Shown here: piece by piece, positions 10,055 to 64,000 of the stretch
Position numbering within the stretch: position 1 is the first letter of the stretch
Layout of the letters: each line of letters begins with the position of its first letter
Assembly (NCBI GenBank): GCA_044230415.1
Contig: JBGARE010000001.1
Span: forward strand, 497,195 to 561,194
Direction: 5' to 3'
DNA: 64,000 nt
Origin: Kofleriaceae bacterium
GTDB taxonomy: Bacteria > Myxococcota_A > Polyangia > Haliangiales > Haliangiaceae
Translations under genes and position numbers: made by a program
The notes under the pieces: generated by a model
Seen by the model: the letters and a program-made list of their open reading frames with translations, nothing else
What the model was told of the DNA's origin: nothing
Databases searched by the model: none

Positions 10055-10183
10055 GGCATGTCCACGCGCCGTGCCAGCGTAGGCACGCGGAGCGCCGAGT
10101 GCCTCCGCGCTCGCCGGTGCGCGATGACGCTACGTTGTAGCTCGTTGGACGGGCGCGGCGGCGGACCGTGAGTCGGTCGATCG

Positions 10184-19253: not shown

Positions 19254-19368
19254 CCGCGTGTAGGCGCCGGTAGTTCTACTTCGATAACCGATCGATAGCT
19301 CTCGGTTCTCGACGGCCGGTGCTACCATGGGCTCGCTTATGGTCGATTACATCGACGAGGGAAGCTTC

Positions 19369-24365: not shown

Positions 24366-25369
24366 GTCGTCGCATCGCCAGACGTCGCCGCCGTGGAGGC
24401 TTCACGCTCGTCGAGCTGATGGTGTCGCTCGTGATGTTCTCGTTCGCGATCGCGGGCGTGCTGGCGGTGGCCGTGTCGATGGCGAACGGGTTCCGCGAGC
24501 AACGCGCGGGCGTCGGCACCGAGGGCGCGGCGCGGTCGGCGATGGAGTTTCTGAGCGATGCGATCCGCGGCGCGAGCCCCGGTATCGAGAGCGGCATCAT
24601 CTATCCGATGGATGACTCGGAGTGCAACACGGTCACCGGCCTCGCCAACGGCGTGAACCGTTCGTTCCGCGCGACGATGGGCAACGCGACGGCGCCCGAT
24701 TCGGTGACGGTCACGTTCGCGTACGGCTCTGTCGTCACGACGGCCCTCACCGGGTACGACACGGCGGCGCTCGGCGGTACGATCACCGTCGAGAACGGGT
24801 CGCAGTTCCAGAACGGTGACTTCATCGTGCTGACGGACTTCTCGAACGCAGTACTGATCAAGGTCGATGTCTCGGGCAACACGCTCACCTACGACGCGAC
24901 ACCGGCGTGTACGCAAGCGATCAACATTCCGGCGGGCGCGCTCGCCATTCGTGCACTGCGCGCGCGGTTCTACATCCAGAACCTCGACGGTATCCCGACG
25001 CTGTTCATGGATCCCGATCCGACCGACGGCGTGACCAACGACGACGAGCCGCTCGCCGAAGGCATCGAGGATCTCCAGGTCGTGCTCGGCATCGACTCCG
25101 GCTCCGACGGGCTCGGTGCGGAGAATGCTGTGGTCGACGGCGACGAGTGGTGGGGCAACCTGCCGGGCGAGACGATTCCCACGACCGGCGCGATCACGAT
25201 GCGTGCGGTGCGTCTCTCGCTCGTCGCTCGTGCCCTCGTCCCCGTTAGCGGTACGGCGTCGTACTTCCGGCCCGCGCTGGAGGATCACGACGGCAGCACC
25301 ACCGACAATTTCCGGCGACGTGTGCTCACGTCGATCATCGAGGTCCGCAACATGTTGGGGTCCAAATGA
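24362..25369 (+). CDS. pilW: PilW-like minor pilin
   Basis: GTG start overlapping the upstream stop (GTGA). VSRRIARRRRRGGFTLVELMVSLVMFSFAIAGVLAV prepilin signal. About 335 aa, typical of PilW. Confidence 0.7.
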   Translation: MSRRIARRRRRGGFTLVELMVSLVMFSFAIAGVLAVAVSMANGFREQRAGVGTEGAARSAMEFLSDAIRGASPGIESGIIYPMDDSECNTVTGLANGVNRSFRATMGNATAPDSVTVTFAYGSVVTTALTGYDTAALGGTITVENGSQFQNGDFIVLTDFSNAVLIKVDVSGNTLTYDATPACTQAINIPAGALAIRALRARFYIQNLDGIPTLFMDPDPTDGVTNDDEPLAEGIEDLQVVLGIDSGSDGLGAENAVVDGDEWWGNLPGETIPTTGAITMRAVRLSLVARALVPVSGTASYFRPALEDHDGSTTDNFRRRVLTSIIEVRNMLGSK

Positions 25370-46426: not shown

Positions 46427-47958
46427 CCACGCCTGACGCCCCCGCGTTCACCGATCTGCCCGACCTCGCGAGTGCGACCGTCGGCGGTGCCGCGCTCGCC
46501 TGCAACGACGAGTTCTTCGCCGAGAAAGAGAACCTCCTCAAGCCCGACGAGGCCGTGTGGAAGGATCACCTCTACACGGATCGCGGCAAGTGGATGGACG
46601 GCTGGGAGACGCGGCGGTTTCGCCCCGCCGACGGTGTCGCGCCCGGACCCGAGAGTGACATCCACGACTGGTGCGTGATCCGCCTCGGACTGCCCGGCGT
46701 GATCCGAGGACTCGTCGTCGACACCGCGTGGTTTCGCGGGAACTACCCGGCGTCTGCGGCGGTCTTCGCGACGTCGGTCGATGACGCGCTCGATCAGCGC
46801 GCGCTCGACACGGCGACGTGGACCGAGATCCTTCCGCGCTCGAACCTCGCGGGGAACACGAAGAACTACTTCGCGATCGCGGATGCGTCGCGGTTCACGC
46901 ACCTGCGCTTGCAGATCTATCCCGATGGCGGCGTCGCGCGCCTGCGCGTGCACGGCGAAGCCGTCCCGGTGTGGAGCAAGCTGCGCGCGCTCGGCGGTCC
47001 GGTGGATCTCGCAGCGCTCGAGAACGGCGCCGTCGTCGAGACGTGCAGCGACATGTTCTTCGGCTCGCGCAATAACCTCATCAAGCCCGGCGAGTCGCTG
47101 TCGATGGCCGATGGCTGGGAGACACGCCGCCGCCGTGGCCCGGGCAACGACTGGGCGATCATTCGCCTCGCCGCGGCGGGCACGATCGAGCGGCTGTTGA
47201 TCGACACCTCGCACTTCAAGGGCAACGCACCGGCGCTGTGCACCGTCGAGGGCGTGCACGCACCGGGCGCCGCGGCCGATGCGCTGACCGGATGGCGACA
47301 GCTGCTCGCGTCGCCGCTGCAGGCACACACGCGCCACTTCTTCGACGAGGATCTGCGCCGCATCGGTCCGATCACGCACCTGCGCCTCTCGGTGTATCCG
47401 TGCGGCGGCGTCGCGCGACTGCGCGCGTGGGGCAACCTCGTGCCGCACGAGCCCGCATCGCTCGCCGTGTTGAACACGCTCGCGGCCTCCGACGCGCACG
47501 CGGCGTTCCAGCGCTGCTGCGGATCGTCCGCGTTCGCCGACGCGATGACCGCGCTGCGTCCATTCGAGGGTGTCGCCGCGATGCTGCGCGCGGCGGAGCG
47601 CGTGTGGTGGTCGCTCGACGACGCCGCGCATCGCGAGGCGTTCAGCGCGCATCCGCGCATCGGCGAGAAGAAGGCACCTGCGAGCGGCGACACCGCGTGG
47701 TCCGCGGGCGAGCAGGGCGGCACCGCGGCCGCGACCGCGCGCACGATGACGGAGCTCGCCGACGCACAGCGCGCGTACGATCAGAAGCACGGCTTCCTCT
47801 ACATCGTGTGCGCGACGGGCAAGTCGGCCGACGCGATGCTCGCCGATTGCCGCGCACGACTCGCGAACGATGCGGCCAGCGAGCTGCGCTGCGCCGCCGA
47901 GGAGCAGATGAAGATCACCCGCCTTCGCCTCGCGAAGCTACTGACGGAGCTCGCATGA
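46423..47958 (+). CDS. Allantoicase (two tandem allantoicase repeats) fused to OHCU decarboxylase
   Basis: Two allantoicase repeats (DGWETRRFRPADG…; DGWETRRRRGPGNDW…) followed by a C-terminal UraD-like domain (…FSAHPRIGEKKAP… HGFLYIVCATGKSADAMLADCRARL). ATGA overlap with allB. Confidence 0.8.
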   Translation: MTTPDAPAFTDLPDLASATVGGAALACNDEFFAEKENLLKPDEAVWKDHLYTDRGKWMDGWETRRFRPADGVAPGPESDIHDWCVIRLGLPGVIRGLVVDTAWFRGNYPASAAVFATSVDDALDQRALDTATWTEILPRSNLAGNTKNYFAIADASRFTHLRLQIYPDGGVARLRVHGEAVPVWSKLRALGGPVDLAALENGAVVETCSDMFFGSRNNLIKPGESLSMADGWETRRRRGPGNDWAIIRLAAAGTIERLLIDTSHFKGNAPALCTVEGVHAPGAAADALTGWRQLLASPLQAHTRHFFDEDLRRIGPITHLRLSVYPCGGVARLRAWGNLVPHEPASLAVLNTLAASDAHAAFQRCCGSSAFADAMTALRPFEGVAAMLRAAERVWWSLDDAAHREAFSAHPRIGEKKAPASGDTAWSAGEQGGTAAATARTMTELADAQRAYDQKHGFLYIVCATGKSADAMLADCRARLANDAASELRCAAEEQMKITRLRLAKLLTELA

Positions 47959-48287
47959 TCACCACGCATGTCCTCGACACCGCTCTCGGCATCCCCGGCA
48001 AGAACATCGCGATCGAGCTCGAGCGCCAGGACGGCGCAGCGTGGCACCTCGTCGGTGCGGGCATCACCGACAGCGATGGACGACTTCGCACGCTGACGCC
48101 GCAAGGACCAGTACAGCCCGCGACGTATCGCATCCGATTCGTGATCGCGCCGTACTTCGAGTCGCACGGGACGAAGGGTTTCTTCCCGCTCGTCGAGATC
48201 CAGTTCGTCGTCGACGACGGCAATGCGCACTACCACGTGCCGCTCTTGCTCTCGCCGTTCGGCTACTCCACGTATCGCGGCAGCTGA
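47955..48287 (+). CDS. uraH: 5-hydroxyisourate hydrolase (transthyretin-like)
   Basis: MITTHVLDTALGIPG… ends in the diagnostic YRGS tetrapeptide. 110 aa. ATGA overlap with the upstream gene. Confidence 0.9.
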   Translation: MITTHVLDTALGIPGKNIAIELERQDGAAWHLVGAGITDSDGRLRTLTPQGPVQPATYRIRFVIAPYFESHGTKGFFPLVEIQFVVDDGNAHYHVPLLLSPFGYSTYRGS

Positions 48288-48450
48288 TCACGAGTGATCA
48301 CGCGGTGGCCGGCAGAGTCTAGCGATCGGCTACCCGAACCGTCGCTCGCATCCACCGCGAGTGGCCACTGCACTGGCCACTTGTCCGAGCAAGTCCTCGA
48401 ACCTGCGCGCGGATCGTGCGGGCAAGGGCTTTGCACCGGGCGGCGCGCAT

Positions 48451-49791
48451 ATGCGCCTCGCGTATCTCCTCGCCTCCACCCTCCTCGCGTCTGCGTGTGT
48501 CGAAACCGTAAGCGACAGCTCCAAGCTCGATAGCGACGAACCGGGCTTCGGCATCGACGATCTCGGCAAGGCCGACGGTGTTCTCTCGAGCGCCGACCGC
48601 GCGCGCATCGAGACCGCGTTCGATCAAGCGATCACGAGCGCCGAGTCGACGGTCGCCCAGCTCGAGACCGAGATCGCTCAGCTCGAAGCGAGCCACGCCG
48701 CGAAGCAAGCCGAAGCAGATCGGCTCGTCGCGCAGATCGCCGCCCGCGAAGAAGACATCCGTCGCAACTTCAACAACAACCTGATCGTCTGCGCGTTCTT
48801 CCCGAGCCCCGCGTGCTTCCTCGCGACCGCGTTGTCGAATGACTCCGCGCTGCGCTCGTTCCGCCAGCAGCTCGCGAGCGCACAAGCGGAGCAGACGCGC
48901 ATCCGCAACGAGATCGGCGCGTACGGCCAGAAGCGCGACGCGATCCGCGCGAAGGTCACGCCGCTGCGCGCCGGCAAGCAGCGCGTGCTCGCGATGCTGA
49001 ACGGCACCGCGCCGCACACGCCGCCGGCCGAGCTCGCGAGCGATCCCGCGACCGCGGAGGCGTACTGGCGCGCGGGAGCGATGTCCGACGTGCAAGCCGC
49101 CGTCGCCGAAGAGGTTCGCTTGCTCCTCGAGCTCCGCGATGCCGCGGTCGAGCTCGCGACCACGCTCGATCAATCGCTGCTCACGCTGCGCCGGCTCGAG
49201 GAGAGCGTCGCCACGCTCGTCGAGAAGCAGCGCGAGCAGTTCATGAAGCTCGTGGTCGGCGTGCTCACGGGAGACCCGGCCGCCGCGGCGCAGAAGTTCC
49301 TCGACGCTCAGATCGCCGCGCGCACGCGAGCCGTGCTGAACACGCTCGAGTGGCCGCTCAACGAGTTCGCGATGTTCCTCGCGAGCAAACGCGGCGATGG
49401 TGACGTGCAGGCGCTCTATCGCAAGTTGCTCGAGAAGCTGATCGCCGATTCGCAGCCGCGCGTAGTGGAGGTCACCACGCCGGTGAATATCCTCGACAAC
49501 ACCGTCGCTTCGTCGCCGGTCACGATCGCGCAGGCGAGCACCGCGGAGAAGGTCGAAGTGCACGTCTCGCTCGAGCACAGCTACGTCGGCGATCTCGTCA
49601 TCTCGCTGACCCACGGCACGAAGACGTGGCTGCTCTCGGAGCGCGTCGGCGGCAGCGCGGACAACCTCGACAAGACGTTCACGCTCCCCGACACGGGCAT
49701 CGCGATGAAGGGTAAGTGGACCCTCGCGATCGAGGACAAAGAAGCGCAGGACCAGGGCAAGCTCCTCGGCTGGGAGCTGATCGCGTACTAA
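48451..49791 (+). CDS. Lipoprotein with a coiled-coil region and a C-terminal proprotein-convertase P-domain (no protease domain)
   Basis: Lipobox LLASAC. Long heptad-rich middle. The C-terminal VEVHVSLEHSYVGDLVISLTHGTKTWLL… GKWTLAIEDKEAQDQGKLLGWELI matches the P-domain (H.Y.GDL.I.L.SP.GT … G.W.L.V.D … G.L..W.L). Confidence 0.65.
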   Translation: MRLAYLLASTLLASACVETVSDSSKLDSDEPGFGIDDLGKADGVLSSADRARIETAFDQAITSAESTVAQLETEIAQLEASHAAKQAEADRLVAQIAAREEDIRRNFNNNLIVCAFFPSPACFLATALSNDSALRSFRQQLASAQAEQTRIRNEIGAYGQKRDAIRAKVTPLRAGKQRVLAMLNGTAPHTPPAELASDPATAEAYWRAGAMSDVQAAVAEEVRLLLELRDAAVELATTLDQSLLTLRRLEESVATLVEKQREQFMKLVVGVLTGDPAAAAQKFLDAQIAARTRAVLNTLEWPLNEFAMFLASKRGDGDVQALYRKLLEKLIADSQPRVVEVTTPVNILDNTVASSPVTIAQASTAEKVEVHVSLEHSYVGDLVISLTHGTKTWLLSERVGGSADNLDKTFTLPDTGIAMKGKWTLAIEDKEAQDQGKLLGWELIAY

Positions 49792-50267: not shown

Positions 50268-51653
50268 ATGACCACGGCGCGTACCTCCCTCTCCGAGAAG
50301 AAGCTGGCGAAAGTTCTGGAGCGCGTGCAGCGCGCGCAGAACAAGGTCTTCGAGCGCTATCCGGGCGACTCCGGCGCGCGCCAACCCGTGCACACCGTGT
50401 ACGGCGGCGCGCATCTGTTCACGGCCGACACCGCGAAGAAGCTCGGCGAGCTCTCGCTGCGCGCGCTCGACACGTACGCCCCCGACGCGGCGTCGTTCTC
50501 CGAAGCGATCGGCATCCGCGGCGATCTCGCGCCGAAGGTCTACGAGCGCGTGCGCGAGAAGCTGCGCCGCGAAGCCGTCGAGGACTTCCGCATCGACTTC
50601 GAGGACGGCTACGGCAATCGCCCCGACGCCGAAGAAGACGGTCACGCCGCCGCCGCGGGCATCCAGGTCGCCGCCGGCATGGCCGCCGGTTCGCTGCCGC
50701 CGTTCCTCGGCATTCGCATCAAGCCGCTGACCCGCGATCTCGCGGCGCGCTCGCTGCGCACGCTCGACATCTTCCTCACCGAGCTTCTCGACAAGAGCGG
50801 CGGTCAGCTGCCGCAGAACTTCGTCGTCACGCTGCCGAAGATCCTCTCGCGTATGGACGTCACCGCGCTCGTCGACACGTTCGAGCTCCTCGAGGAACGC
50901 CTCGAGCTGCCGGGCGGATCGCTCAAGGTCGAGTTCATGGTCGAGACCACGCAATCGATCTTCGATCCGAAGGGCCGCTCGATCCTGCCGCGCCTCCACG
51001 ACGCCGCGCGCGGTCGCCTCACGGGCGCGCACTTCGGAACGTATGACTACACCGCGAACTGCGACATCACCGCCGCGCATCAGCGCATGCGCCACCCGGC
51101 GTGCGACTTCGCGAAGCACGTGATGAAGGTGACGTTCGCGGGCACCGGCGTCATGCTCTCCGACGGCGCGACGAACATCATGCCGATCGCTCCGCACAAG
51201 GGATCGAAGGAAGCACCGCTCCTGACCGAAGATCAGAAGCGCGAGAACAAGGCCGCGGTCTACGCCGCCTGGCGCCTCCACGCCGACGACGTTCGCCACT
51301 CGCTCGTCAACGGCTTCTACCAGGGCTGGGATCTCCACCCGGGCCAGCTGCCCACGCGCTACGGCGCGGTCTACGCGTTCTTCCTCGATGGCTTCGCATC
51401 CGCGAGCGAGCGCCTCTCGAACTTCGTCGGCAAGGCCGCCCAGGCAACGCTCGTCGGCGACGTGTTCGACGACGCGGCGACCGGCCAGGGCCTCCTCAAC
51501 TACTTCCTGCGCGGCATCGCGTGCGGCGCCGTCACCGAGCAAGAAGCGCTCGCGACCGGCCTCTCTCTCGACGAGATTCGCTCGAAGTCGTTCGTGAAGA
51601 TCATGGCCGCACGCCGCGCGCAGCCGGCTCCGTCGGCTCCGTCGGCTCAGTAA
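50268..51653 (+). CDS. Hypothetical protein, possibly an HpcH/HpaI-aldolase / citrate-lyase-beta-like TIM-barrel enzyme
   Basis: 461-aa ORF with an IDFEDGYG segment and an overall pattern resembling PEP/oxo-acid-utilising TIM-barrel lyases. Assignment is weak. Confidence 0.4.
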   Translation: MTTARTSLSEKKLAKVLERVQRAQNKVFERYPGDSGARQPVHTVYGGAHLFTADTAKKLGELSLRALDTYAPDAASFSEAIGIRGDLAPKVYERVREKLRREAVEDFRIDFEDGYGNRPDAEEDGHAAAAGIQVAAGMAAGSLPPFLGIRIKPLTRDLAARSLRTLDIFLTELLDKSGGQLPQNFVVTLPKILSRMDVTALVDTFELLEERLELPGGSLKVEFMVETTQSIFDPKGRSILPRLHDAARGRLTGAHFGTYDYTANCDITAAHQRMRHPACDFAKHVMKVTFAGTGVMLSDGATNIMPIAPHKGSKEAPLLTEDQKRENKAAVYAAWRLHADDVRHSLVNGFYQGWDLHPGQLPTRYGAVYAFFLDGFASASERLSNFVGKAAQATLVGDVFDDAATGQGLLNYFLRGIACGAVTEQEALATGLSLDEIRSKSFVKIMAARRAQPAPSAPSAQ

Positions 51654-52240: not shown

Positions 52241-52320
52241 GACTTGGAAACGTCGTGGGACGTCCAGCGCTTACACCGTTGCGGTCCCGCGGCGGTTCGG
52301 GTAGAAAACCCGCTCGTCAC

Positions 52321-52397
52321 GGTGGTCATAGCTCAGTTGGTAGAGCGCCAGGTTGTGGTCCTGGATGTCGCGGGTTCGAACCCCGTTGATCACCCCA
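52321..52397 (+). tRNA. tRNA-His: tRNA-His (anticodon GUG)
   Basis: Cloverleaf read by hand. G-1 paired to discriminator C73 (a His-tRNA hallmark). 7-bp acceptor stem GTGGTCA/TGATCAC. D-arm GCTC-AGTTGGTA-GAGC. Anticodon stem CCAGG/CCTGG with loop TTGTGGT (GTG). T-arm GCGGG-TTCGAAC-CCCGT. 3'-CCA encoded. Confidence 0.85.
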
Positions 52398-52404
52398 AGT
52401 AGAG

Positions 52405-53511
52405 TCAGCGCTGCAAGTAGATGAAGGTGACCGCGGTGCACACGGGCACTGCCTCTCCATTGATCGAGTACGGGGAGTACCGCCACGTCGCGATCCCGGT
52501 CAGCAGATCGCGATCGTAGGCCGGGAAGCCCGTCGAGCGCATCGGCAGCACGGACTCGACGCGTCCCTCCACATCGAGACACACGCGGAACGATCCTTTG
52601 ATCTCCTGACCGCGATACTTCGCGATCTCCGGCTTGGTCGCATCGTCGGGAACAATGGTGCGCCGCCCAGCGATCCGCTTGCCTTCCATCAGCGTCACGA
52701 AGGCTCGCTGCGCGAGTGATAGCGGCGGTCGCACGAACTTCGATTTCGGCGGCGGCAACGGGAGCTCCTCGATCGGCGGTGCCTTGTCCGCCGGATACGA
52801 CATCTGCACCATCGAGCACACCGGGACCGGCTGTCCCGCGTGGAGGAACGGCCGAAATGTCCACGTGCGCGCGGCTGTCACGAACGCATCCATCATCACG
52901 TACGAGGGAGGCGTGTATGGATGGACGTCGGTCACGGCGCCGCTCTCGTCGAGGCAGACCTTCAGCCACATCACGGCGGCCTCATCGCCCGGCGACAGCT
53001 CGCGCGCGAAGCTAGCCGTCGTCGCCGCATCGAACACCGGCACGCGTTGCCCGCCCGTTCGCAGCGCTTCGAACGCGGCCGTGTCCAGCGTGGGAGCGTT
53101 CGGTGTCCCGGGGTGCTGCGACGCGAACCCGATCCACGTCAGCTGCGATCGGTCCCGCATGCGAATGATCCGCGCCTCGACCTCGAAGCCCGGGCCATAG
53201 CTGAGGACGGCGACATCGCCGAGGGCATCCTCTCGCCCATTCGGATGAAGCCGGAGCGTCGACAGACAGCGCGCGAGCTCCGCGAGCTTGTCCGCGTGGA
53301 CTTCTCCCGGAGGAAACGCAGAGGCGCACGCGGCGTCGTCGAACAGCAGGTTGCCCAGCGTGACGGAGTCATGCAGCAACGTGGCGATCGTGGCCGGCTC
53401 GCCCGACAGGTCGTTGGCCGAGGCCTTCGCCGCTTCGCGTGCGTCGGGAGGCTTGAGCCCTGGACCACACGCCCCGATCACCACCGCCAGCACGAACGCT
53501 GCTCGCGACAT
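52405..53511 (-). CDS. Hypothetical lipoprotein with a possible TonB-C-like C-terminal domain
   Basis: Lipobox AVVIGACG after MSRAAFVL. C-terminal …INGEAVPVCTAVTFIYLQR. Begins 8 bp after the tRNA-His 3' end, on the opposite strand. Confidence 0.5.
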   Translation of the reverse strand: MSRAAFVLAVVIGACGPGLKPPDAREAAKASANDLSGEPATIATLLHDSVTLGNLLFDDAACASAFPPGEVHADKLAELARCLSTLRLHPNGREDALGDVAVLSYGPGFEVEARIIRMRDRSQLTWIGFASQHPGTPNAPTLDTAAFEALRTGGQRVPVFDAATTASFARELSPGDEAAVMWLKVCLDESGAVTDVHPYTPPSYVMMDAFVTAARTWTFRPFLHAGQPVPVCSMVQMSYPADKAPPIEELPLPPPKSKFVRPPLSLAQRAFVTLMEGKRIAGRRTIVPDDATKPEIAKYRGQEIKGSFRVCLDVEGRVESVLPMRSTGFPAYDRDLLTGIATWRYSPYSINGEAVPVCTAVTFIYLQR

Positions 53512-53721
53512 GTGCCGAGGATACACGCGAGGTGCGCACGACTCGAAGTCGAGGAGTCCAATCGTATTGAGATCGAACAGCGCCGTGATCGAAGGCGTGC
53601 ACGCACAATTCGTGGTCAGTGGAACGCCGCGCACACTAGGTGCCGGTGCTCCTCTCTCGATTCGTCGCCACCAACGTCGATCGAGAACGTGGCCCATTCG
53701 TGAGGGAACGCTTCCGGCTGG

Positions 53722-53736
53722 TTTGAAAGATTCAAA
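53722..53736. promoter_or_regulatory. Perfect AT-rich palindrome TTTGAA-AGA-TTCAAA in the lower-GC intergenic region upstream of the DUF222 gene
   Basis: Seen directly. It lies in a 360-bp intergenic region that is conspicuously AT-richer than the genome. Confidence 0.3.
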
Positions 53737-53869
53737 TCTCCCAAACGGAGCGTCTGCGCGAGGGTGCGGCTGGAGCGTTCTCGTCCGTGGTTCGTCGCGT
53801 TCTTCTCGCGGAACGCAACAACGAGATCGTCATTGCGAGATCGTGAGTGTCAGAGTCGGATGATAGTCA

Positions 53870-55238
53870 ATGATCATGTCCGTCGATCTCGATGATCTGG
53901 GCGAGCGCATCGCAACGCACGCCGCCCACCTCGACGCCGCCACCCACACGCTGCTCACCGACCTGCGCGAGTTCGACGCCGCGAACGGTTGGTACAAGCA
54001 AGGCGCTCGCTCGTGCGCCGATTGGCTCTCGTGGCGAGTCGGCTGGAACATCGGCACCGCGCGCGAGCACCTTCGCGTCGCTCGCAGGCTCGCCGAGCTG
54101 CCGTTGATCGATGACGCTCTTCGGCGTGGCTCCATCTCGTACGTGAAGGTCCGCGCGATCACGCGTGTCGCGACCACGGCGAACGAGGCACTGCTCCTGA
54201 CCGACGCGCAGCACGCGACCGGCTCGCAGCTCGAGCGCATCTGTTGCAAGTACGCGGCCGTCGTTCGCGCCTCGAAGGAACCCGACGAGGGCTACGACCG
54301 CGATCGTCGCTATCTTCGTCGTTTCGATCTCGGCGACGGAATGGTGAAGATCGATGGCGTCTTTTATTTTGAAGAAGCGGCGATGATCTGGGCAGCGCTC
54401 GAGGCCGTCGCTCGCGCTCGCACGAGCGAGCATCCTCGGGCCGAGACAACCAGCGGCGCGGAGACCGCAACAACACGCGATGGCGCCGCCGTCGCGATGG
54501 CGCTCGATGCTCCATCGATGGGCACTATTCCGAAGCGTGAGCGAGAGGCTCGATTCGATCGCGCCGATGCCTTGGTCTCGCTCGCTCGCGACACGTTGCG
54601 CGGCGATCGCGTGCACGCCGTCCCGACGGAGCTGGTCGTCACCGTTGCCGCCGAGACGCTGGCGAATCCGTTGAGCGCGCCCCGATCCGTTCGCGGTCAC
54701 GAGCGATGGCACCTGCGTTTCCGCGGAAACGGCCCGTCGCCTCGCGTGCGACTGCGGCGTCGTCCACATGGTCGAGGATCAGGCCGGCACGACGCTGTCC
54801 GTCGGTCGGAAGACGCGCTCGATCCCCGCGTCGATGAAGCGTGCGCTGTTGAAACGAGACACGACGTGCCGCTTCCCGGGCTGCTGCAACCGCATCTTCG
54901 TCGAGGGTCACCATATCCATCACTGGGCCAATGGTGGCGAGACCTCGCTCGGAAACCTGGTCGGCCTGTGCAGCCACCACCACCGCTTTGTCCACGAGTA
55001 CGGCTATCGCGTCGAGCTCGACGAGCGCCAGCAGCCGCGGTTCTTCGATCATTGCGATCGATTGGTCACGGATGCGCCTCCGCGCCCAGCACCGCGACGG
55101 CTCGGAATGCAGGCACTGGTCGACAGGCACCGCGAGCTCGACATTTCCGCGGACACGAACGAGCCGCGATGGGACGGCGATCCCGTGAACTATCCGTGGG
55201 TCATCGGGGATCTCGTCCGCGTCGATGGACTCCACTAG
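53870..55238 (+). pseudogene. DUF222-family HNH endonuclease, interrupted by a frameshift (N-terminal DUF222 region in one frame, CDC…HNH domain in another)
   Basis: Frame A (53870-about 54690) gives the typical DUF222 N-terminus (…ADWLSWRVGWNIGTAREHLRVARRLAELP…). Frame B (open from 54675 to 55238) gives DGTCVSAETARRLACDCGVVHMV…CRFPGCCNRIFVEGHHIHHWANGGETSLGNLVGLCSHHHRFVHE, the canonical HNH end of the same family. A TGA at 54672-54674 closes frame B just upstream. Confidence 0.6.
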
Positions 55239-55354
55239 GTTAGATCGTGACCGCGTGGCCATCGCGTACGGGAGGCGATCTCGGTCAACTCGATCGGGTT
55301 CATCACCCCACGTTGATGTGAAACGCGGTGGCTGCATCGGGCTCTACCCGTTCG

Positions 55355-58300
55355 ATGCCGAATGTTCGTCGTGCCTTCGCACTCCTCATGCTCGCGGCTT
55401 GTGCCGACGATGCAACCAGCCCACCCGAAACCGTCACGATAGCCAAGGGCGAGAACGAGGCGTGCCCGGTCGGCGCCGTCTCGTTCCCGACCAAGCTTCC
55501 CGACGCGGCGACTCCCGCTCTCGGGGCGCTGCCCGGTGCGTTCGATGTGACGCCGTCGGGCGACGCCGCCTACTCGATTCCCCTCGCGCTGCCACCGACT
55601 CCCACGGTGCTGCCGTTTCCACTCTCGCTCGAGTATCGAGCGAGTGGTGGCGACAGCTTCTTGGGAACCGGCTTCTCGCTGGCGGGCCTGTCGGTGATCT
55701 CGCGTTGCCCGCGAACCTTCGCGCGCGATCTCGAAGTTCGTGCCGTGCAATACGACGACACCGACAACTTCTGCCTCGACGGCAAACGCCTCGAGAACGT
55801 CGGCGTCGATACCTACCGGACGTATCCGGACACGTTCGTCCGCATTCGAGCGAATCGCAACGCCGACAAGGAGATCGAGTCGTTCACGCTCCGAGCTCCG
55901 AGCGGCGTCCACTACACGTACGGCGGAACCGATCACGGCCGCGTGCTCGCGTATTCGGACAAGCTCGTCAACACGGGCTGGCTCCTCGACAAGATCTCGA
56001 CGGACACGACCCCGCTCGGGGTCGACATCGACTACACGAACATCAAGGATCAGACGCTCGGGTATACGACCGAGGTCGTCCCTGCGTCGGCCACGTACGG
56101 CGAGGCCCAGATCCAGTTCGCGTACGATTCGAAGGCACCGGAGGACGTTCGCGAGAGTTGGAACCACGGGATGCGAATGACGCGCTCGTTGCAGTTGCGA
56201 CACATCGCGATGGGAACGCTCGGCGGCGAGCTGACCGCGCGCAAGTACGTGTTCGGCTACGACGCCGGAAAGCGAACGCGTCGGACGAATCTCGTGTCGG
56301 TCAAGCAATGCGATGCGAGCAATGCTTGCCAGCCTCCGACGACGTTCACGTACGACAGCACACCGCTCGGGAGAAACGAGCTCTCGTGGACCGACACGCA
56401 AGGCGTGATCCCGCCACCGGTCGCAGCACAGGCGACCGTGATGGCGATGGATGTCACCGGCGATGGGCTCGACGATCTCGTCACCGCCGACACGACGCCC
56501 ACGCCATCGGCGACGACGGTGTGGAGCATTGCCCGCAATATCGGCGACGGAAAGTTCGCCGCGCCGGTCGTCGCGTTGACGGAGCCGATGCGGCAGATAA
56601 CAGCTGTGTCGGCAGACTCGGTGATTCTCGACCGCGGAACAGCGATCGACTACAACGGTGACGGCCTCCTCGACATCTTGCTCCACGACGTCGACGGCCA
56701 ATTTGCCAACTGGCAGGTGCTGCTCTCGGCGTTCGGATCGACCTCGTTCACGCGCTTCGATACGGGCATCGCGCGGCCGTTCGCGTCGACGATCCCGAAG
56801 GGCTTGGTCGGTATCGACGGCTCCGTGCATCTCGCGGACTTCGACGGTGACGGGGTCTCGGATCTCGTGCAGTGCAAGAGCGCGGGTAACAGCCAGTGGA
56901 CGTGGACCGTCAACACGTGGAGAGGGCCGCCGGTGTACGCGGCCGGCTTCGATCCCTTCGCGCTGGTGATCGAAAACAGCGAGTTCAACTCGCACGCATT
57001 CACGCTGCGCGGCTATCCATGTGACACACCGGTGATTCCACTCGATGTGGATCACGATGGCCGCATGGACTTGCTCGTTCGCGAAGTGTTGTTCGCCGAC
57101 GGCACGAATCCGACGCAGTACGGCAGCAAGCTGTTCGCGATCGGGCGTCATGGGACGTGGTCGAGCTTCGAGGTAACCGATCCGAAGCTGCCGGCGCCCA
57201 CGGGGCAGCTCGCGTTTGCCGACATCAACGGAGACGGCTTGCTCGACGCGCTGTCGACGCCTGCCGTGCCAAACACGAACTTCGACGTCAGGATCAATCA
57301 AGGTGGCACCTTCGGGCCGGCGACCAACGCATTGCCGTCGTCGCAGATGGTGGTCGACGTGTCGCTGAACCTCGCCGCACCGACCGATGTCGATGGTGAC
57401 GGCCGTCAGGACGTGATCGTTCCGATCAAGACGAGCGGCAGTTTCGTTCAATGGAAGGTTCTTCACGCTCGCAATGACGGGCAGGCGATCGCAGGGGCTC
57501 CGCTGGAAGTGTGGAGCCCGGGATTTCCGACCGACCTCGAGTTTCAGATCGACCAGGAACCCACGCTCTCCCATCCGCTCGCGCCTCGCGTCGCCGACGT
57601 CGACGGCAACGGTGCACACGACGTGTTGTTGTTCACGGGCGGCAAACTGCATGCCTTCAAGAGCAAGGCGTTCGAAGAGGACATGCTCGCGACCATCACC
57701 ACCGGATCCAATGCAAGGGCTCCGGGGGATGCCAAGTTCGTTCCCGACGTGTCCATTTCGTATGGACACTTGGTCGATCGGTTCATCACCGACGGTGGCG
57801 CATCAGCGCCAGAGAAGTATCTGTATCTGTCGCGCTCCGACAAGACGAACACCTGCGAGTACCCGCGCCGCTGCGCGGTCGGCGCACGTCGCGTGGTCGC
57901 GAAGTACGAGACGAACAATGGTGCCGACGTGAAGCACGTCTTCGATCTGCACTATCGCGACGGTCGGGTGCATCTCCGCGGCTGGGGTTGGCTCGGCTTC
58001 GGTACGCAGATCCTGCTCGACGACGCGAACAAGGCGACAAAGACAACGACGTTCGAGAATCGTACACCGGCGGCGATCTTCGGCGACTACCCGTTAGCGG
58101 AACGCGCGGCATCGGTCGTCACCACGGTGCGCGCGAAAGCGACCGACCCGAACCCGAACCGGATCGATTCGTTCCGGATCGACATCACGCGTGAGATGGA
58201 AGTAATCAACACGAGCACTGGTCTGCAGTACTTTGTCGCGCCGACGGCGACGCGAGAGCAGACGTTGCAGGACGGTGTGATCGTTTCGGATGCCCGGACC

Positions 58301-61300
58301 TCGACGACGTACGACGAGCTCGGCAACCCGAGAAACAGCGTCTCTTGGGTCGAGGGTGTCGACGAGACCACGACCATCGAACGCGACTACTGGAACGATC
58401 AATCCAACTGGCTGCTCCGCCGGCCGAAGCATGTCGTGCGCTGCAGCACCACCGGCGGAGGCGCGCAATGCAAGACTCTCGATGTCGACTACGACGCCTT
58501 AGGTCGACCCGTCACGCAGCGAAGTAGTGCCGATGGTGGCGCGGGCGTGACGGTCACCTATACGTACGATGACAAAGGCAATCCAAACACGGCCGCTGTC
58601 TCCGACGCGACCGGCACTACGCGCAAGTCCTGCATGACCTTCGATTCGACGGGCACGTTCCCGACGGCGATGATCGACGGTCTAGGTCACAAGCGCTTCT
58701 ATCAATACGACGCCCGATTCGGGACGCTGAGCACGGAGATCGATCCGAATGGTCTCGCCACGCAATGGGCAACTGATCGTCTCGGTCGCGTGACCCAGGA
58801 GCGCCGGCCGGACGGAACGCAGACCACGATCCTGCGCTCGCAGATCGTCGACCCGATCCGTGGGAAGGCCACGCAGGTCAAGACGATGGCCACCGGCGCA
58901 CCGACTACGACGGTGCAGTTCGATCAACGCGATCGGCCGGTCATCGAGTGGACCGACAATCTGCATCCGTACTGCACGGGCCCTTGCCTGATCGTTCCGC
59001 GCCTCGTGCACTACACCGAGTACGAGACACTCACGGACGAAGTTCGGCGAGAGTCGATGCCCGTCGACGAGACGTTGCCGCTGACCACGTTCTGGAATTC
59101 GTATCTGCGAGATGCGACGGGACGCATTCTCAAGTCGGACACGTACTGGGCTGGGGGCACGATGAAGTTCGGCTACGACAAGCTCGTCACGACGGTCACC
59201 ACCCCCGGCAATATCGTCAAGACGATCACGACCGATCCGGGCGGCCGCACCGTCGCGATCAAGGATCCATCGGGAACCTCGACATTCGAATACGGTCCGT
59301 TCGGGCGCCTCGCGAAGTCGACCTCGTCGGCGGGAGAGGTCTCGCGGTACAGCTACGACGGGTTCGGGCGCATCACGTCCGCGACGGAACCGAATCGCGG
59401 AACTACGACGCGCACGTTCGATGGCTTCGGCAATCTCGTCGAAACGACCGATGCGATGGGCCGCACGATGAAGTGGACGTATGACACCGGCGGTCGACCG
59501 CTGACGCGTACGGACAATGACGGCCTCGCCACGTGGACGTGGGACACGGCTCCTGGTGCGGGCATCGGGCACATCGCCGCGCTCGATGCGCCCGCCGGTA
59601 AGCGGAGCTATTCGTATACGGCGGTCGGGCAGCTCGCATCGGACACACTGACGATCGGCAGCGAATCGTTCGTGACGACGCGGACGTACGACACGGCTGC
59701 GCGGCTCGCGACGATCGCGTATCCGCTCGCACCGGGACTCCCGGGGGCGGTCGTCGCGAAGCGCGAGTACGACAGCGCGGGGCACTTGGTTCGCGTGGCC
59801 GATGCGACGACGAACGCGAACTACTGGACGATCACCGCAAAGGACGCGTACGGACATCCGACCGAAGAGCTCCTCGGAAATGGCGCGAAGACGGCGATCG
59901 GCTACGTCCTCGACAAGAATCGCGTCTCGTCGATCAAGACGACGCTCGGAGCGTCGACGCTGCAAGATCTCACCTACGTGTGGACCGATCGGCTCGATCT
60001 CGCGAGTCGTGCGGATGGTCTGCAGCACAAGACCGAGAGCTTCACGTACGACCCGCTCGATCGGCTCACCTGCGCGAAGTTCGACGCGTCGCCGACGTGC
60101 GCACTCTCCGTCGCATATGCGGCGAACGGGAACATCGCGTCGAAGTCCGATGTCGGCAGCTACGTTTACGCGGCCGATCATCCGCATGCGGTGCGCTCGA
60201 TCGCGAGCAAGACGTACGACTACGATCTCGTCGGCAATCAGATCAAACGCCCCGACGCGACGCTGACATACACCGCGAACGATCAAGTCCGCTCGATCGT
60301 GCCAACTGCCGGTGCCAGCGTCACGTACGACTACGACGCCAATGGCAAGCGGATCCGCCGCACGATCGGGACCGAGACGGCGATCTACGCCGGTTTGTAC
60401 GAGCGCACCACGAAAGCTTCGGGCGTCGATCATCTCTATTCGATCACGAACAACGATCACGTCGTCGCGCTTGTCACCCGCCATGCAGGGCTCGCGGATA
60501 CGACGACGTTCGTCCACGTCGATCATCTCGGCTCGCCCGATGTCTTGACGAACAAGACGGGTGTGGTGATCCAGCGGCTCAGCTACGACGCGTTCGGTCA
60601 GCGTCGCAATCCAGCGTGGGGCCAGTCCTACACGCCCGCGACCTCGGCGGTACCGATGTCCTATACGGGACAGCACGAGGACGTGCTCGACCTCGTCGAC
60701 ATGAAGGGTCGTACGTACGACCCGAAGCTCGGACGGTTCCTTCAAGCGGACCTGATCTCCGGATCGCCGCTCGCGAGCCAATCGAACTCGTACAGCTACG
60801 TTGGCAACAACCCGCTCGTCTTCACCGATCCGAGCGGCTACACGGCCGTGCTGCATCAAACGACGCAGACGACGACCGTGAGCGTTCCGAGCTCGGCGCC
60901 ATCGACGGATCCATCACCGACGATCAACGCATCCCTCGAGCAGTCGGCACCGGCCCCGGCGCACGACACGCGCAATGCGGGTGAGAACACTGCGAACGAC
61001 ACGGCGAGCACCGGAACCACCTCGACGGTGTCCTTCGATGTCTGGGACGTGGTCGACACCGGCCTGCACTTGGCGCTCGAGTCCGGTCCGTGGGCCGGTA
61101 TGTCCGTCGAGCCGCTGCCCACGGTCGGCGACGCGATCGGTCAATCGATCGGTTCACTCGGCAGCATCGGTAGCCACGGCATCCACAAGTCCAAGGACAC
61201 GCCGGACTCCGAGTTCGTTGGCCCACCACTACTGATGGACGACGACGACACTCTCCCGAAGTGGTGTGCTCCGCTCGCCATCTTCGCGATCGGAGTCGGT

Positions 61301-61810
61301 GGTGCCGAGATCATGGCCGACATCATCGTCGAGATGATGGTGGAGTCTCTCGTCGAGGCTGGCTTCGACTATCTCGAGGATTGGGTTCTCGATGTCGGCA
61401 AGGATCTGTTGAAGCGGTATCTGAACATCGACGACTTCGAGCTCCCCGACGTCGTCGAACACCTGTTGCGTCGCTTCATCCAGTTCGGGACGGTCTCGAA
61501 GATCCCGAAGGACAAGGTCGACTACGGCCCGAAGCGTCGCGGGGGCGCCCCGGTCGGAAACGACAAGAAGCCGATCGAGCTTCATCACCTCGACCAGAAG
61601 AACGACTACTCACCGCTCGCCGAGCTGATCCGCAGAGATCACCGTGGCAAAGGCGCCTACAAGCGGAACCACGGCAATACGGGTCAGCAAGGCTCGTCGA
61701 TCATGCGCAAAGACTTCGACCACTGGACCGGGAAGTACTGGGAGCACCAGTTCGACACGGGCCAGTTCGACGGGCTCGACGATTGCCCGCCGATGCTCAA
61801 CCTCCGATAG
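55355..61810 (+). CDS. Rhs/YD-repeat polymorphic toxin lipoprotein: SpvB-like N-terminal domain, FG-GAP/VCBS integrin-like repeats, YD-repeat RHS shell with RHS core, and a C-terminal LHH-type HNH/EndoVII nuclease toxin domain
   Basis: Lipobox LLMLAAC. A SpvB/TcB-like N-terminal segment (about 55,500-56,300). Seven or more DxDGDGxxDLV FG-GAP repeats (about 56,450-57,650). Numerous YD repeats (TYTYDDKGN, YQYDARFG, YSYDGFGR, KWTYDTGGRP, TYDYDANGKRIRR) from about 58,300 to 60,700. RHS-core end …RTYDPKLGRFLQADLISGS…YSYVGNNPLVFTDPSGY (about 60,700-60,860). A 310-aa C-terminal tip with KKPIELHHLDQKNDYSPLAELIRRDHRG (the LHH signature of the HNH/EndoVII toxin clade) at about 61,570-61,650. Confidence 0.85.
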   Translation: MPNVRRAFALLMLAACADDATSPPETVTIAKGENEACPVGAVSFPTKLPDAATPALGALPGAFDVTPSGDAAYSIPLALPPTPTVLPFPLSLEYRASGGDSFLGTGFSLAGLSVISRCPRTFARDLEVRAVQYDDTDNFCLDGKRLENVGVDTYRTYPDTFVRIRANRNADKEIESFTLRAPSGVHYTYGGTDHGRVLAYSDKLVNTGWLLDKISTDTTPLGVDIDYTNIKDQTLGYTTEVVPASATYGEAQIQFAYDSKAPEDVRESWNHGMRMTRSLQLRHIAMGTLGGELTARKYVFGYDAGKRTRRTNLVSVKQCDASNACQPPTTFTYDSTPLGRNELSWTDTQGVIPPPVAAQATVMAMDVTGDGLDDLVTADTTPTPSATTVWSIARNIGDGKFAAPVVALTEPMRQITAVSADSVILDRGTAIDYNGDGLLDILLHDVDGQFANWQVLLSAFGSTSFTRFDTGIARPFASTIPKGLVGIDGSVHLADFDGDGVSDLVQCKSAGNSQWTWTVNTWRGPPVYAAGFDPFALVIENSEFNSHAFTLRGYPCDTPVIPLDVDHDGRMDLLVREVLFADGTNPTQYGSKLFAIGRHGTWSSFEVTDPKLPAPTGQLAFADINGDGLLDALSTPAVPNTNFDVRINQGGTFGPATNALPSSQMVVDVSLNLAAPTDVDGDGRQDVIVPIKTSGSFVQWKVLHARNDGQAIAGAPLEVWSPGFPTDLEFQIDQEPTLSHPLAPRVADVDGNGAHDVLLFTGGKLHAFKSKAFEEDMLATITTGSNARAPGDAKFVPDVSISYGHLVDRFITDGGASAPEKYLYLSRSDKTNTCEYPRRCAVGARRVVAKYETNNGADVKHVFDLHYRDGRVHLRGWGWLGFGTQILLDDANKATKTTTFENRTPAAIFGDYPLAERAASVVTTVRAKATDPNPNRIDSFRIDITREMEVINTSTGLQYFVAPTATREQTLQDGVIVSDARTSTTYDELGNPRNSVSWVEGVDETTTIERDYWNDQSNWLLRRPKHVVRCSTTGGGAQCKTLDVDYDALGRPVTQRSSADGGAGVTVTYTYDDKGNPNTAAVSDATGTTRKSCMTFDSTGTFPTAMIDGLGHKRFYQYDARFGTLSTEIDPNGLATQWATDRLGRVTQERRPDGTQTTILRSQIVDPIRGKATQVKTMATGAPTTTVQFDQRDRPVIEWTDNLHPYCTGPCLIVPRLVHYTEYETLTDEVRRESMPVDETLPLTTFWNSYLRDATGRILKSDTYWAGGTMKFGYDKLVTTVTTPGNIVKTITTDPGGRTVAIKDPSGTSTFEYGPFGRLAKSTSSAGEVSRYSYDGFGRITSATEPNRGTTTRTFDGFGNLVETTDAMGRTMKWTYDTGGRPLTRTDNDGLATWTWDTAPGAGIGHIAALDAPAGKRSYSYTAVGQLASDTLTIGSESFVTTRTYDTAARLATIAYPLAPGLPGAVVAKREYDSAGHLVRVADATTNANYWTITAKDAYGHPTEELLGNGAKTAIGYVLDKNRVSSIKTTLGASTLQDLTYVWTDRLDLASRADGLQHKTESFTYDPLDRLTCAKFDASPTCALSVAYAANGNIASKSDVGSYVYAADHPHAVRSIASKTYDYDLVGNQIKRPDATLTYTANDQVRSIVPTAGASVTYDYDANGKRIRRTIGTETAIYAGLYERTTKASGVDHLYSITNNDHVVALVTRHAGLADTTTFVHVDHLGSPDVLTNKTGVVIQRLSYDAFGQRRNPAWGQSYTPATSAVPMSYTGQHEDVLDLVDMKGRTYDPKLGRFLQADLISGSPLASQSNSYSYVGNNPLVFTDPSGYTAVLHQTTQTTTVSVPSSAPSTDPSPTINASLEQSAPAPAHDTRNAGENTANDTASTGTTSTVSFDVWDVVDTGLHLALESGPWAGMSVEPLPTVGDAIGQSIGSLGSIGSHGIHKSKDTPDSEFVGPPLLMDDDDTLPKWCAPLAIFAIGVGGAEIMADIIVEMMVESLVEAGFDYLEDWVLDVGKDLLKRYLNIDDFELPDVVEHLLRRFIQFGTVSKIPKDKVDYGPKRRGGAPVGNDKKPIELHHLDQKNDYSPLAELIRRDHRGKGAYKRNHGNTGQQGSSIMRKDFDHWTGKYWEHQFDTGQFDGLDDCPPMLNLR

Positions 61811-61814
61811 GAGG

Positions 61815-62036
61815 CTAGTTCCGGAAGAACAGCGCGCAGGTCACGCAGTGAAACGATGCGTCCGACGACTGCGCCATGACGATCGAAACGACCTGGGACT
61901 CCGGGTGATCGGAGATCCAGCGCGTGACGTTCTCGCCGAGCACTTCGCGATCGCGATGCATCGTGGCTGAGAACACCTTGACGCCGGTGAAGGCCATACC
62001 AGGACGCAACACCAATTCTTTACTGCTCGGCGCCAT
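61815..62036 (-). CDS. Small ORF (73 aa) convergent with, and 5 bp beyond, the Rhs toxin stop; candidate orphan/immunity-like gene, low confidence
   Basis: ORF in a 360-bp lower-GC spacer (about 58% GC) between the Rhs gene and the convergent esterase. MAPSSKELVLRPGMAFTGVKVFSATMHRDREVLGENVTRWISDHPESQVVSIVMAQSSDASFHCVTCALFFRN. No family recognised; could be non-coding. Confidence 0.25.
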   Translation of the reverse strand: MAPSSKELVLRPGMAFTGVKVFSATMHRDREVLGENVTRWISDHPESQVVSIVMAQSSDASFHCVTCALFFRN

Positions 62037-62171
62037 TGTGTTCGCACCGTAGCACCGGCGTCTTCCGATAGCTCGCGCTACGGAGCGAGCTTCACAGGTG
62101 GGCGAGGTATTGGATGCAGAGGCCGTAATGGTGATTGCACTGCACCTGTGGGCAGGTTGGTCACCTTGCTG

Positions 62172-63266
62172 TCAGAGCGGACACGATTGCACGCCGGTAC
62201 AGGAGCCCGTACGCGGGGTAGCTCCACCCACACCGATGCCGCACCACTCGGGGGTTCCCGTCGGTAGTCCCGTGCTCGTCCACGGTGATGCGCCTGCGGG
62301 GAGCCAGTACGGATGATCGAGGACGAACTTGTAGAGCACGCGCAGCCCCACCATCGGATCGACGGGCGGCGCAGCGTGACCACAGTTGTGCACGCACTCG
62401 ACGACGAAGCTGCCTTGCGCTTCGAGCTTGCTGCCGAGCGCGTGCGAGCCCGCCTCGAAGCTCACACCGCCGCACGAGTCCGTCGAGCCGCCCCAGCCGT
62501 AGATGGTCGGGATCGGGCGCTCGGAGCCCGTCCACCCGCGCACGTCGGCGAAGCCGCCGAAGCCGCCCGTCGGGCCGACGCCACCGGAGATCACGATCGC
62601 GCTCGACAGTCGCGACGATCGACGCTGCATGAGCTGCGCGGTCCACAGCGCTCCCGCGCTCACGCCGACCGACGACACGCACTGCTCCTGCACGGGAAAC
62701 TGCTGCGCGACGCACGCGAGGATGTCGTCGAACAGCACCGCTTCTTGCTCGACGCGAGCGTTCGTCACGAAGTCCATGTACGGCCACGCGAGATCCACGT
62801 TCGCGATCGGGAGCAGTACGTCGCCCTTCTTCTCGGGAACGGCGATCAGCATGCGGAGCTCGTCGGCTGCGGGTTGGGCGTCGCCGTTGTTCACCATCGA
62901 GCTCGCGCTGCCGCCGATGTAGTGCCACATGAACAGCAGCGGCAGCGTTTCGGTCTGCGTGTCGAGAGCGCTCGGCACCACGAGCACGAACTTCCGTGGC
63001 ACGCCGCTCGACACGATCGTGTTCATGCCGGCGACGAGGGTCGGACACGTACCCGCGTACTGCGGTAGTGGTGGTGGCGTCGGTGCACCCGCTGGTGGCG
63101 GCGTCGCGCAGGTCACGCCGGCGTACGACGTCATCGGCGCGTCCGGCATCGGCGTCGACGAGCCGCTGCCATCGCCACCGTCGGGACCGTCGGGGCCGTT
63201 GGTCGGCGGCGCATCGCTGCCGCTGCAGCCGACGAGGAGAAGTGCGAGGAGGACGTGTTTGTTCAT
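62172..63266 (-). CDS. Secreted alpha/beta-hydrolase esterase (PHB-depolymerase / feruloyl-esterase-like family), lipoprotein
   Basis: Lipobox LLVGCSG. Gly/Pro-rich linker. Esterase core with the nucleophile-elbow GVSAGA and LPLLFMWHYIGGSASS. Cys-rich C-terminus. Confidence 0.65.
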   Translation of the reverse strand: MNKHVLLALLLVGCSGSDAPPTNGPDGPDGGDGSGSSTPMPDAPMTSYAGVTCATPPPAGAPTPPPLPQYAGTCPTLVAGMNTIVSSGVPRKFVLVVPSALDTQTETLPLLFMWHYIGGSASSMVNNGDAQPAADELRMLIAVPEKKGDVLLPIANVDLAWPYMDFVTNARVEQEAVLFDDILACVAQQFPVQEQCVSSVGVSAGALWTAQLMQRRSSRLSSAIVISGGVGPTGGFGGFADVRGWTGSERPIPTIYGWGGSTDSCGGVSFEAGSHALGSKLEAQGSFVVECVHNCGHAAPPVDPMVGLRVLYKFVLDHPYWLPAGASPWTSTGLPTGTPEWCGIGVGGATPRTGSCTGVQSCPL

Positions 63267-64000
63267 AGGATCGGGTCGTAGTTCTGACAAGCGGTGTCGA
63301 TGACTGGCAGTGCGTCGAGGAAGAACTGGTCGTAGTTGGCGGCGCAGACATCACCGATGAAGCCGCGCTCGTCGAACTTGTTCGTGAAGCCGAGCAGTCG
63401 CGATGCGGGCGTCGCTCCGCACGCGTTGTTGAGCTGCCGTCCGATCAGCGACAGCACGACGATGTTCTGTGCGTAGCCTCCGCGATGCGCGACGACGGTG
63501 TTGTACCAATCGGTCGACGTGCCGCCCGAGCCGTAGCTGTCGCAGACGCCGTTGCCGTCGCAGCCATCCGCGACGTCGTCCTCGTCGGTGATGATCACGA
63601 TGACGAGCAACGACTCGGGGCGCGAGAAGCCCGCGTTGCACGCGCCCTGTGCGTTGCGCGATGGCTCGAGCGCGTTCATCACCGCGCGGGCGATGCGCTC
63701 GTCGCTCGAGCCACCCGCGCCGACCTTGCCGGCGCAGGCGAACTTCTGCGCGAGGCTGGGCTCGGTGCCATCCATCCACGAGTGTCCGCTCGCGAACGGT
63801 CCGCACGTGCTCGCGCTCGACGACGGACCGCCGGTCTGCGTGATCAGATCACCGATCTCGCGACAGCCCACGGCGTTCGCTTGGTAGTCCTCGGTGGTGA
63901 CGATGCCGATGTGATAGCTCTGCGCCTGACCGAGTCGCGATTGGATGCCGGCGACGAAGCCCGGGAAGCTCGCGATCAAGCTGTCCTGCTGATCGGCCAT
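63263..64000 (-). CDS. Hypothetical protein, possibly 5'-truncated by the window edge (an ATG lies exactly at the edge)
   Basis: ORF reaches the window end. It contains …ESLLVIVIITDEDD…, Cys-rich. ATGA overlap with the downstream esterase gene. Confidence 0.4.
   Translation of the reverse strand: MADQQDSLIASFPGFVAGIQSRLGQAQSYHIGIVTTEDYQANAVGCREIGDLITQTGGPSSSASTCGPFASGHSWMDGTEPSLAQKFACAGKVGAGGSSDERIARAVMNALEPSRNAQGACNAGFSRPESLLVIVIITDEDDVADGCDGNGVCDSYGSGGTSTDWYNTVVAHRGGYAQNIVVLSLIGRQLNNACGATPASRLLGFTNKFDERGFIGDVCAANYDQFFLDALPVIDTACQNYDPIL

Follow-up and report, generated by a model that had tools for sequence, protein, structure and literature searches.

The Rhs-LHH gene in the window, by which we mean the whole 64-kb stretch of DNA that was analysed, is very probably an orphaned toxin gene. 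It closes a 9.4-kb strain-specific segment, the immunity module that is linked to it in its relatives is absent, and the convergent 73-aa gene directly beyond it was already present at the site and has no role in immunity. Based on comparison with related loci, the absent module would, in this clade, normally consist of a DVWLYN protein of ~135 aa and, often, a SUKH-like protein of ~150 aa encoded behind it. As a toxin, Rhs-LHH belongs to a known class and is unremarkable within it, but its context is unusual and probably degenerate. The locus offers a clear case, found in nature, of a nuclease toxin that looks intact and is without a linked immunity module.

The features needed to follow the argument are listed here in window coordinates.

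52322..52397, + strand: tRNA-His (GTG), the left border of the segment (ARAGORN)
52403..61813, no strand: strain-specific segment, 9411 bp (window compared with L001-L004 by blastn and tblastx)
52405..53697, - strand: TonB C-terminal-domain protein, 430 aa (Pfam TonB_C 9.8e-8; TIGR01352 2.4e-6)
53870..55238, + strand: HNH endonuclease gene, apparently frameshifted near 54400-54680 (Pfam HNH 2.2e-4, 21.7 bits, cut-off 21.4)
55328..61810, + strand: Rhs/YD-repeat polymorphic toxin (2160-aa ORF; TAG stop at 61808-61810)
61535..61747, + strand: LHH nuclease domain of HNH/EndoVII fold (Pfam PF14411)
61811..61814, no strand: inter-stop DNA (junction alignment; synteny break against L002 between 61813 and 61814)
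61815..62036, - strand: gene for a 73-aa member of a small-protein family conserved in Myxococcota (homologues, selection, codon GC)
62037..62171, no strand: intergenic region of 135 bp, presumed promoter of the 73-aa gene (no ORF with a coding signature)
62172..63290, - strand: esterase-like gene, 372 aa, with weak PHA-depolymerase similarity (NCBIfam NF050058 3.6e-13, under cut-off)

The strain-specific segment and its borders

Locus L001 is 100% identical to the window, and three sister strains, L002-L004, match it at ~90% DNA identity on either side of the segment. Homology between the window and L002 stops at 52402, 5 bp past tRNA-His, and starts again at 61814, the first base beyond the 73-aa stop codon. 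At the same site L002 carries a segment of 7232 bp (L002 10224..17455), and no similarity between the 9411-bp and 7232-bp inserts was detected, even by tblastx. In L002-L004 the site is occupied by two PAS sensor kinases and small ORFs, the kinases lying downstream of the 73-aa gene and on its strand, and in relatives with 85% and 80% protein identity the 73-aa gene is followed by different genes again (a 194-aa ORF; a metallophosphatase). Judged from these strain comparisons, the DNA between tRNA-His and the 73-aa gene is a hot spot of replacement. The flank on the esterase side is common to the Rhs-less strains: the 372-aa esterase-like protein is 94.5% identical to its L002 orthologue, and L002-L004 share 364-aa and 296-aa genes, a Ser/Thr kinase, a sigma-54 activator, a GDSL lipase, a Big_7 protein, a fatty-acid hydroxylase and a TetR regulator.

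The segment resembles variable islands at the side of tRNA genes in that it starts 5 bp past tRNA-His, varies in content among strains with ~90%-identical flanks and has a GC content (63.7%) slightly under that of the remaining window (66.9%). It differs from them in having no integrase among its genes, no repeat of the tRNA 3' end (none of at least 12 nt derived from tRNA-His near 61.8 kb) and no recognisable mobility gene except a broken HNH gene. Its content is limited to the TonB_C gene, this HNH gene and Rhs-LHH, the last of which ends 3 bp before the segment edge.

The HNH gene looks frameshifted because the frame that is marked by high GC3 changes, at ~54400-54680, from that of 53870 to that of 54768. 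The 5' part resembles a DUF222/13E12-type HNH protein by eye and gave no Pfam match. The 3' part corresponds to a 156-aa ORF (54768..55238) directly upstream of the Rhs gene; we considered this ORF as an upstream immunity gene or chaperone and rejected it, since it is the HNH part of the frameshifted endonuclease gene. Two of the public gene calls on L001 in this region look false: one of 281 aa (53867..54712, - strand) lies antisense to the HNH gene, and the other, of 56 aa (52271..52441, - strand), runs across tRNA-His.

At the right border, the stop codon of the 73-aa gene (61815-61817) faces that of the toxin. The original prediction had stated that no co-directional gene follows the toxin and that the nearest ORF, 61815..62036, lies on the opposite strand. 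Both statements hold: no + strand ORF with a coding signature exists in 61811..62171, and the 73-aa ORF is present on the - strand with 4 bp (61811-61814) between the two convergent stops. Three further ORFs, a + strand one of 108 aa that overlaps the toxin gene (61644..61970) and two others (61924..62052 and 62098..62316), were rejected on codon-position GC. The same interval had been described as a 360-bp lower-GC spacer. The lower GC was confirmed, modestly (60.1% against 66.4% for the window), but the interval is not a spacer, as the 73-aa gene takes up 222 of its 361 bp. The truly non-coding DNA amounts to the 4 bp between the stops and the 135 bp upstream of the 73-aa gene. No sigma-70-like site was found in 62037..62171, and an Rfam scan of 61000..62600 returned no match.

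The Rhs toxin and the module that follows it in relatives

The toxin gene is an uninterrupted ORF of 6.5 kb. Its true start is likely the ATG at 55355, where a lipoprotein-type signal, MPNVRRAFALLMLAAC (..AFALLMLAAC), can be recognized by eye. From the N-terminus, the protein consists of an SpvB-like region, TcdB_toxin_midN, an FG-GAP propeller, RHS repeats, the core end, a C-terminal region and the LHH domain. In Pfam searches, FG-GAP_3 (4e-21), RHS_repeat (2.5e-31, in five stretches), LHH (4.9e-10) and TcdB_toxin_midN (1.3e-7, 31.6 bits, cut-off 24.8) were matched, and SpvB (1.3e-3, 18.4 bits) stayed under its cut-off of 22. The core end motif, ..GRTYDPKLGRFLQAD..NPLVFTDPSGY, was located by eye in the translation and is separated from the LHH domain by a C-terminal region of ~330 aa. 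The protein thus has RHS repeats and a core motif ahead of a variable tip, as expected of a YD-repeat shell. The GC content of the gene is 63.1%, against 66.4% for the whole window, and its codon positions have GC1/GC2/GC3 of 0.60/0.49/0.80, with GC3 staying high through the tip. Independent assemblies encode the same protein or one with a single change in 2140 residues. In the databases searched, the Rhs core had no close orthologue, with no match above 47% identity.

The original prediction had raised the possibility that the tip is disarmed, which its residues do not bear out. A C-terminal fragment of the toxin, taken from 60800, matches PF14411 with an E-value of 1e-10 (42.1 bits, cut-off 23.3) over fragment residues 246-316. 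The published Tox-LHH signature comprises the residues N, LHH, E, H, H and W (table in PMC3482391), and it is matched in the tip by L32, H33 and H34, E46, H52, H62 and W85. All of the columns that are invariant in a 17-sequence alignment of the clade are kept as well (G19, A21, P22, E31, H33, H34, Q37, E46, H52, R53, H62, S70, R74 and W85). With the signature residues all intact, the predicted nuclease tip is not visibly disarmed. Against 129 relatives, the tip deviates at 1 of the 17 columns conserved at 95% or more, at 3 of 25 columns conserved at 90% or more (14 of the 129 relatives deviate equally much) and at 7 of 35 columns conserved at 80% or more (11 of 129 do so). It is also the most isolated tip of the clade, with a nearest-neighbour identity of 52% against a median of 68%. 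In terms of these alignments, therefore, the LHH tip is more divergent than most, yet carries no visible inactivation.

These properties bear on whether the gene could be a silent or decaying remnant. Under this explanation, a rearrangement took the module and left the toxin gene without a terminator against a convergent conserved gene, so that it is unexpressed or losing activity. The frameshift in the neighbouring HNH gene, the lack of room for a terminator between the two stops and the isolation of the tip, whose 7 deviations at 35 columns are matched by so few relatives, would fit such a history. On the other hand, the ORF is uninterrupted over 6.5 kb, GC3 remains at 0.80 through the tip, every signature residue is kept and the independent assemblies are virtually without change in the protein. 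We regard a remnant as possible, though rather doubtful. The intact ORF and catalytic residues argue against simple decay, and the toxin may therefore be in use, in which case a protection that our searches did not detect may exist.

What would normally provide this protection can be seen from the relatives of the tip. An exhaustive representative search recovered 492 of them, the best non-self match having 53% identity, where a word-indexed protein search had given only the distant P0121. Twenty loci, found with a 7-sequence alignment of tips, were fetched from reference genomes. In 18 of the 20, a co-directional ORF of ~135 aa (132-145 aa) starts 3-94 bp past the toxin stop or overlaps it, and some co-directional downstream gene follows the toxin in all 20 as well as in L126 and P0121. 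The premise of the original prediction, that nuclease tips are normally followed by an immunity gene on the same strand, is thus well founded for this clade. Members of the ~135-aa family share the motifs DDGRVAYAYL, GDVWLYN, KPGWS and GPLAK, and a second gene (~135-158 aa) with a GSGDPYF motif is present in seven of these loci. Examples of the module, which is seen directly after the LHH toxin stop in L014-L032 and L126, are as follows.

L014 4332..4742: first gene of the module
L126 9370..9786 and 9783..10217: first and second genes of the module

The first family has a weak similarity to DUF2251 (E 0.01-0.03) and the GSGDPYF family a full-length one to SMI1_KNR4 (E 0.24); neither reaches a Pfam or NCBIfam threshold. 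For annotators, a by-product of this work is therefore a two-gene module, so far unannotated, downstream of this clade of LHH toxins. In L033 and in the distant relative P0121, the toxin is followed by a clear SUKH protein, in agreement with the literature, in which Tox-LHH is paired with Imm-SUKH (PMC3482391, PMC3113570).

At the present locus, a co-directional immunity gene directly after the toxin, which is the hallmark of a polymorphic toxin-immunity pair, was not found. Profiles of the DVWLYN and GSGDPYF families and two SUKH queries were run against a six-frame translation of 72 kb, made up of the 64-kb window and 8 kb of L001 beyond it, and scored 4.2 bits at best. Pfam searches with ten small or medium ORFs of the window and ten mostly larger ones detected no immunity family. 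The segment ends 3 bp past the toxin stop and leaves no room for a downstream gene, and this position of the toxin gene at the edge of the segment accounts for the absence of the immunity genes found in its relatives. Rhs-LHH therefore resembles the Rhs/YD toxins of the Tox-LHH and Imm-SUKH type in its RHS repeats, its core end motif and its C-terminal LHH domain with the published signature, and differs from them in having no immunity gene after the toxin. Its nearest relatives also depart from the Tox-LHH/Imm-SUKH pair, in that the ~135-aa family comes first and the SUKH-like protein only second; neither is present here.

The cognate immunity gene might instead be unlinked, lying outside the 72 kb. 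The toxin would then be fully functional, and protection of the strain would act in trans. The intact toxin ORF and catalytic signature are consistent with this, and an active toxin would probably need an immunity protein here, as relatives of the same architecture do. However, no homologue occurs in the window or the adjoining 8 kb, and an unlinked gene would be exceptional given that a co-directional gene lies downstream of the toxin in all 20 relatives, L126 and P0121. An immunity gene elsewhere in the genome seems to us conceivable, if somewhat unlikely.

The architecture of the protein raises a further alternative, namely that no immunity is needed. In this case, the toxin would leave the cell by Sec or lipoprotein export inside an Rhs/TcB-TcC-like shell, would never fold in the cytoplasm of the producer, would be aimed at non-kin targets (prey bacteria or eukaryotes) and would not re-enter sister cells. 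The N-terminal lipobox signal noted by eye agrees with this, and SpvB, TcdB_toxin_midN and FG-GAP are typical of the B components of Tc toxins. TcdB_toxin_midN, the FG-GAP propeller, the RHS shell and the variable C-terminal toxin recall TcB-TcC fusions of Tc toxins, as does the SpvB-like N-terminus, whose match lies under the cut-off. Tc toxins are not known to carry immunity genes, and the Rhs-LHH locus would be like them in this respect too. Unlike a Tc system, however, no TcA partner was present among the window genes scanned by Pfam, and the tip belongs to a DNase family that is otherwise confined to interbacterial polymorphic toxins. Relatives of the same architecture do have immunity genes. 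P0145 (locus L126), with the same SpvB, FG-GAP, RHS and LHH arrangement, has both genes downstream (1.8e-48 and 4.8e-46 against our own profiles), and downstream of P0178, whose domains come in the same order, lie genes of 133 aa and 151 aa. Since these two keep the module, the SpvB/FG-GAP/RHS/LHH architecture alone does not remove the need for immunity, and we consider it unlikely that the toxin is tolerated in this way. The trafficking modes given for Tox-LHH in the literature include a Sec-type signal (Zhang et al. 2011, PMC3113570; 2012, PMC3482391).

The convergent 73-aa gene

The only gene beside the toxin stop is the convergent 73-aa ORF, which the original prediction had put forward as a candidate for a non-canonical immunity gene. 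Its product would then bind and block the LHH nuclease. The ORF lies 4 bp from the toxin stop, is small, as immunity proteins are, and is by codon statistics a real gene of the expressed type (GC1/GC2/GC3 of 0.54/0.45/0.81, a pattern like that of the Rhs gene). Its distribution and conservation, by contrast, make such a role very improbable.

The protein has 424 homologues of 55-99 aa, the few named ones coming from MAGs of Kofleriaceae, Polyangia and Myxococcaceae; protein searching placed the family in more than 400 clusters, and at least 571 stretches of metagenome DNA contain it. Aligned, 36 members have 15 invariant residues and the motifs KVFSAT, R..LG, W, Q.SD (QSSD) and HC (FHC). Between the window and L002, the gene differs at seven nucleotides, all of them synonymous (dN 0, dS 0.153), and comparison with two orthologues, of 85% and 80% protein identity, gives dN/dS values of 0.13 and 0.19, respectively. 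From these substitution patterns we conclude that the 73-aa gene evolves under purifying selection. The case foreseen in the original prediction, that the small ORF might lack conservation, thus does not apply, and the gene itself stands. The AlphaFold model of the protein has a beta-alpha-beta-beta topology with a pLDDT of 84.6. It is a generic small domain in fold and belongs to no named family: Pfam, NCBIfam and PADLOC returned no match, no significant sequence or fold match was found in the PDB, and a sequence-profile search gave only noise. Annotators may wish to record it as an unannotated, highly conserved small-protein family of Myxococcota.

What speaks against an immunity function is that the family lives apart from the toxin. 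The identical 73-aa protein is found on many contigs and in the sister strains L002-L004, which have no Rhs gene at the site. Distant homologues adjoin genes for a histidine kinase, a lactonase, a methyltransferase, a 194-aa protein and a metallophosphatase, among others, and are also found beside the S16/RimM/TrmD/L19 ribosomal cluster, PRPP synthetase and ATP synthase. In 87 other loci of the family (494 kb in total, 35 of the loci being at least 5 kb long), no Rhs gene was detected by tblastn and no match to the LHH profile or to the LHH-immunity profile was obtained; as a positive control, the LHH profile recovered the toxin of the window itself at 9e-42. Clustering of the neighbours around 34 family loci revealed no conserved partner gene from which a function of the 73-aa protein could be read, only common kinases and clade-specific synteny. 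The profile search that had been proposed for the 73-aa product is likewise negative, with no match to SUKH or any other Pfam immunity family and 2.9 bits against the DVWLYN-family profile. The identification of the ORF as a non-canonical immunity gene is therefore refuted as far as sequence can refute it, and the 73-aa gene is a core gene independent of the toxin.

This removes the tempting but wrong annotation of the small convergent ORF as an immunity gene. Similar cases can be settled in the same way, from strains that have or lack the toxin and from the genes found behind the toxin in related loci.

On the - strand at 61832..61846, within the last codons of the 73-aa gene, the sequence could form a terminator-like hairpin with a T-rich run behind it, and it is the same in L002. 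Such a hairpin could let the 73-aa gene keep its terminator although the DNA past its stop was replaced.

Origin of the junction, toxin tolerance and other genes of the window

The junction at which the toxin gene was orphaned probably arose when a rearrangement or deletion reached the ends of the two genes there and left both of them intact. Rhs-LHH would be an accessory gene that lost its linked immunity module or never brought it along, and the 73-aa gene a core gene that lies at the synteny break by chance. Two intact convergent ORFs only 4 bp apart are what is expected if the cell could tolerate a deletion or replacement as far as the ends of two genes that matter, but no further. As no close Rhs orthologue is available (the best core match has 47% identity and the best tip 53%), the ancestral arrangement and the deletion are inferred and not observed.

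It can also be asked whether an intact, exported LHH DNase toxin is kept here with no immunity protein anywhere in the genome, the cell being protected by Sec export, the Rhs shell and the absence of uptake by kin. We judge this to be quite unlikely. If true, the Rhs nuclease would be a one-way weapon against prey or eukaryotes and would not serve in kin discrimination. A complete genome that also lacked an immunity gene would bear on the question of whether shell-enclosed, Sec-exported Rhs toxins can do without one.

Several other genes of the window are unrelated to the toxin finding. Among them are genes for an amidohydrolase (45080..46426), for a secreted protein that has a proprotein-convertase P-domain (48361..49791) and for a DUF6986 protein (50268..51653, E 7.5e-187). 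The ORF 47238..48287 ends in a sequence that we take, from our own reading, to be a transthyretin-like hydroxyisourate hydrolase. Two paralogous beta-propeller proteins of ~1200 aa are encoded on the + strand at 10184..13861 and 20440..23967 and have weak PQQ_2/PilY1-like matches. The same region contains 19327..20432 and 23964..25369, together with pilin-like genes with N-terminal methylation motifs and a PilW homologue. Taken as a whole, this looks like a type IV pilus tip or minor-pilin region with a duplicated large gene.
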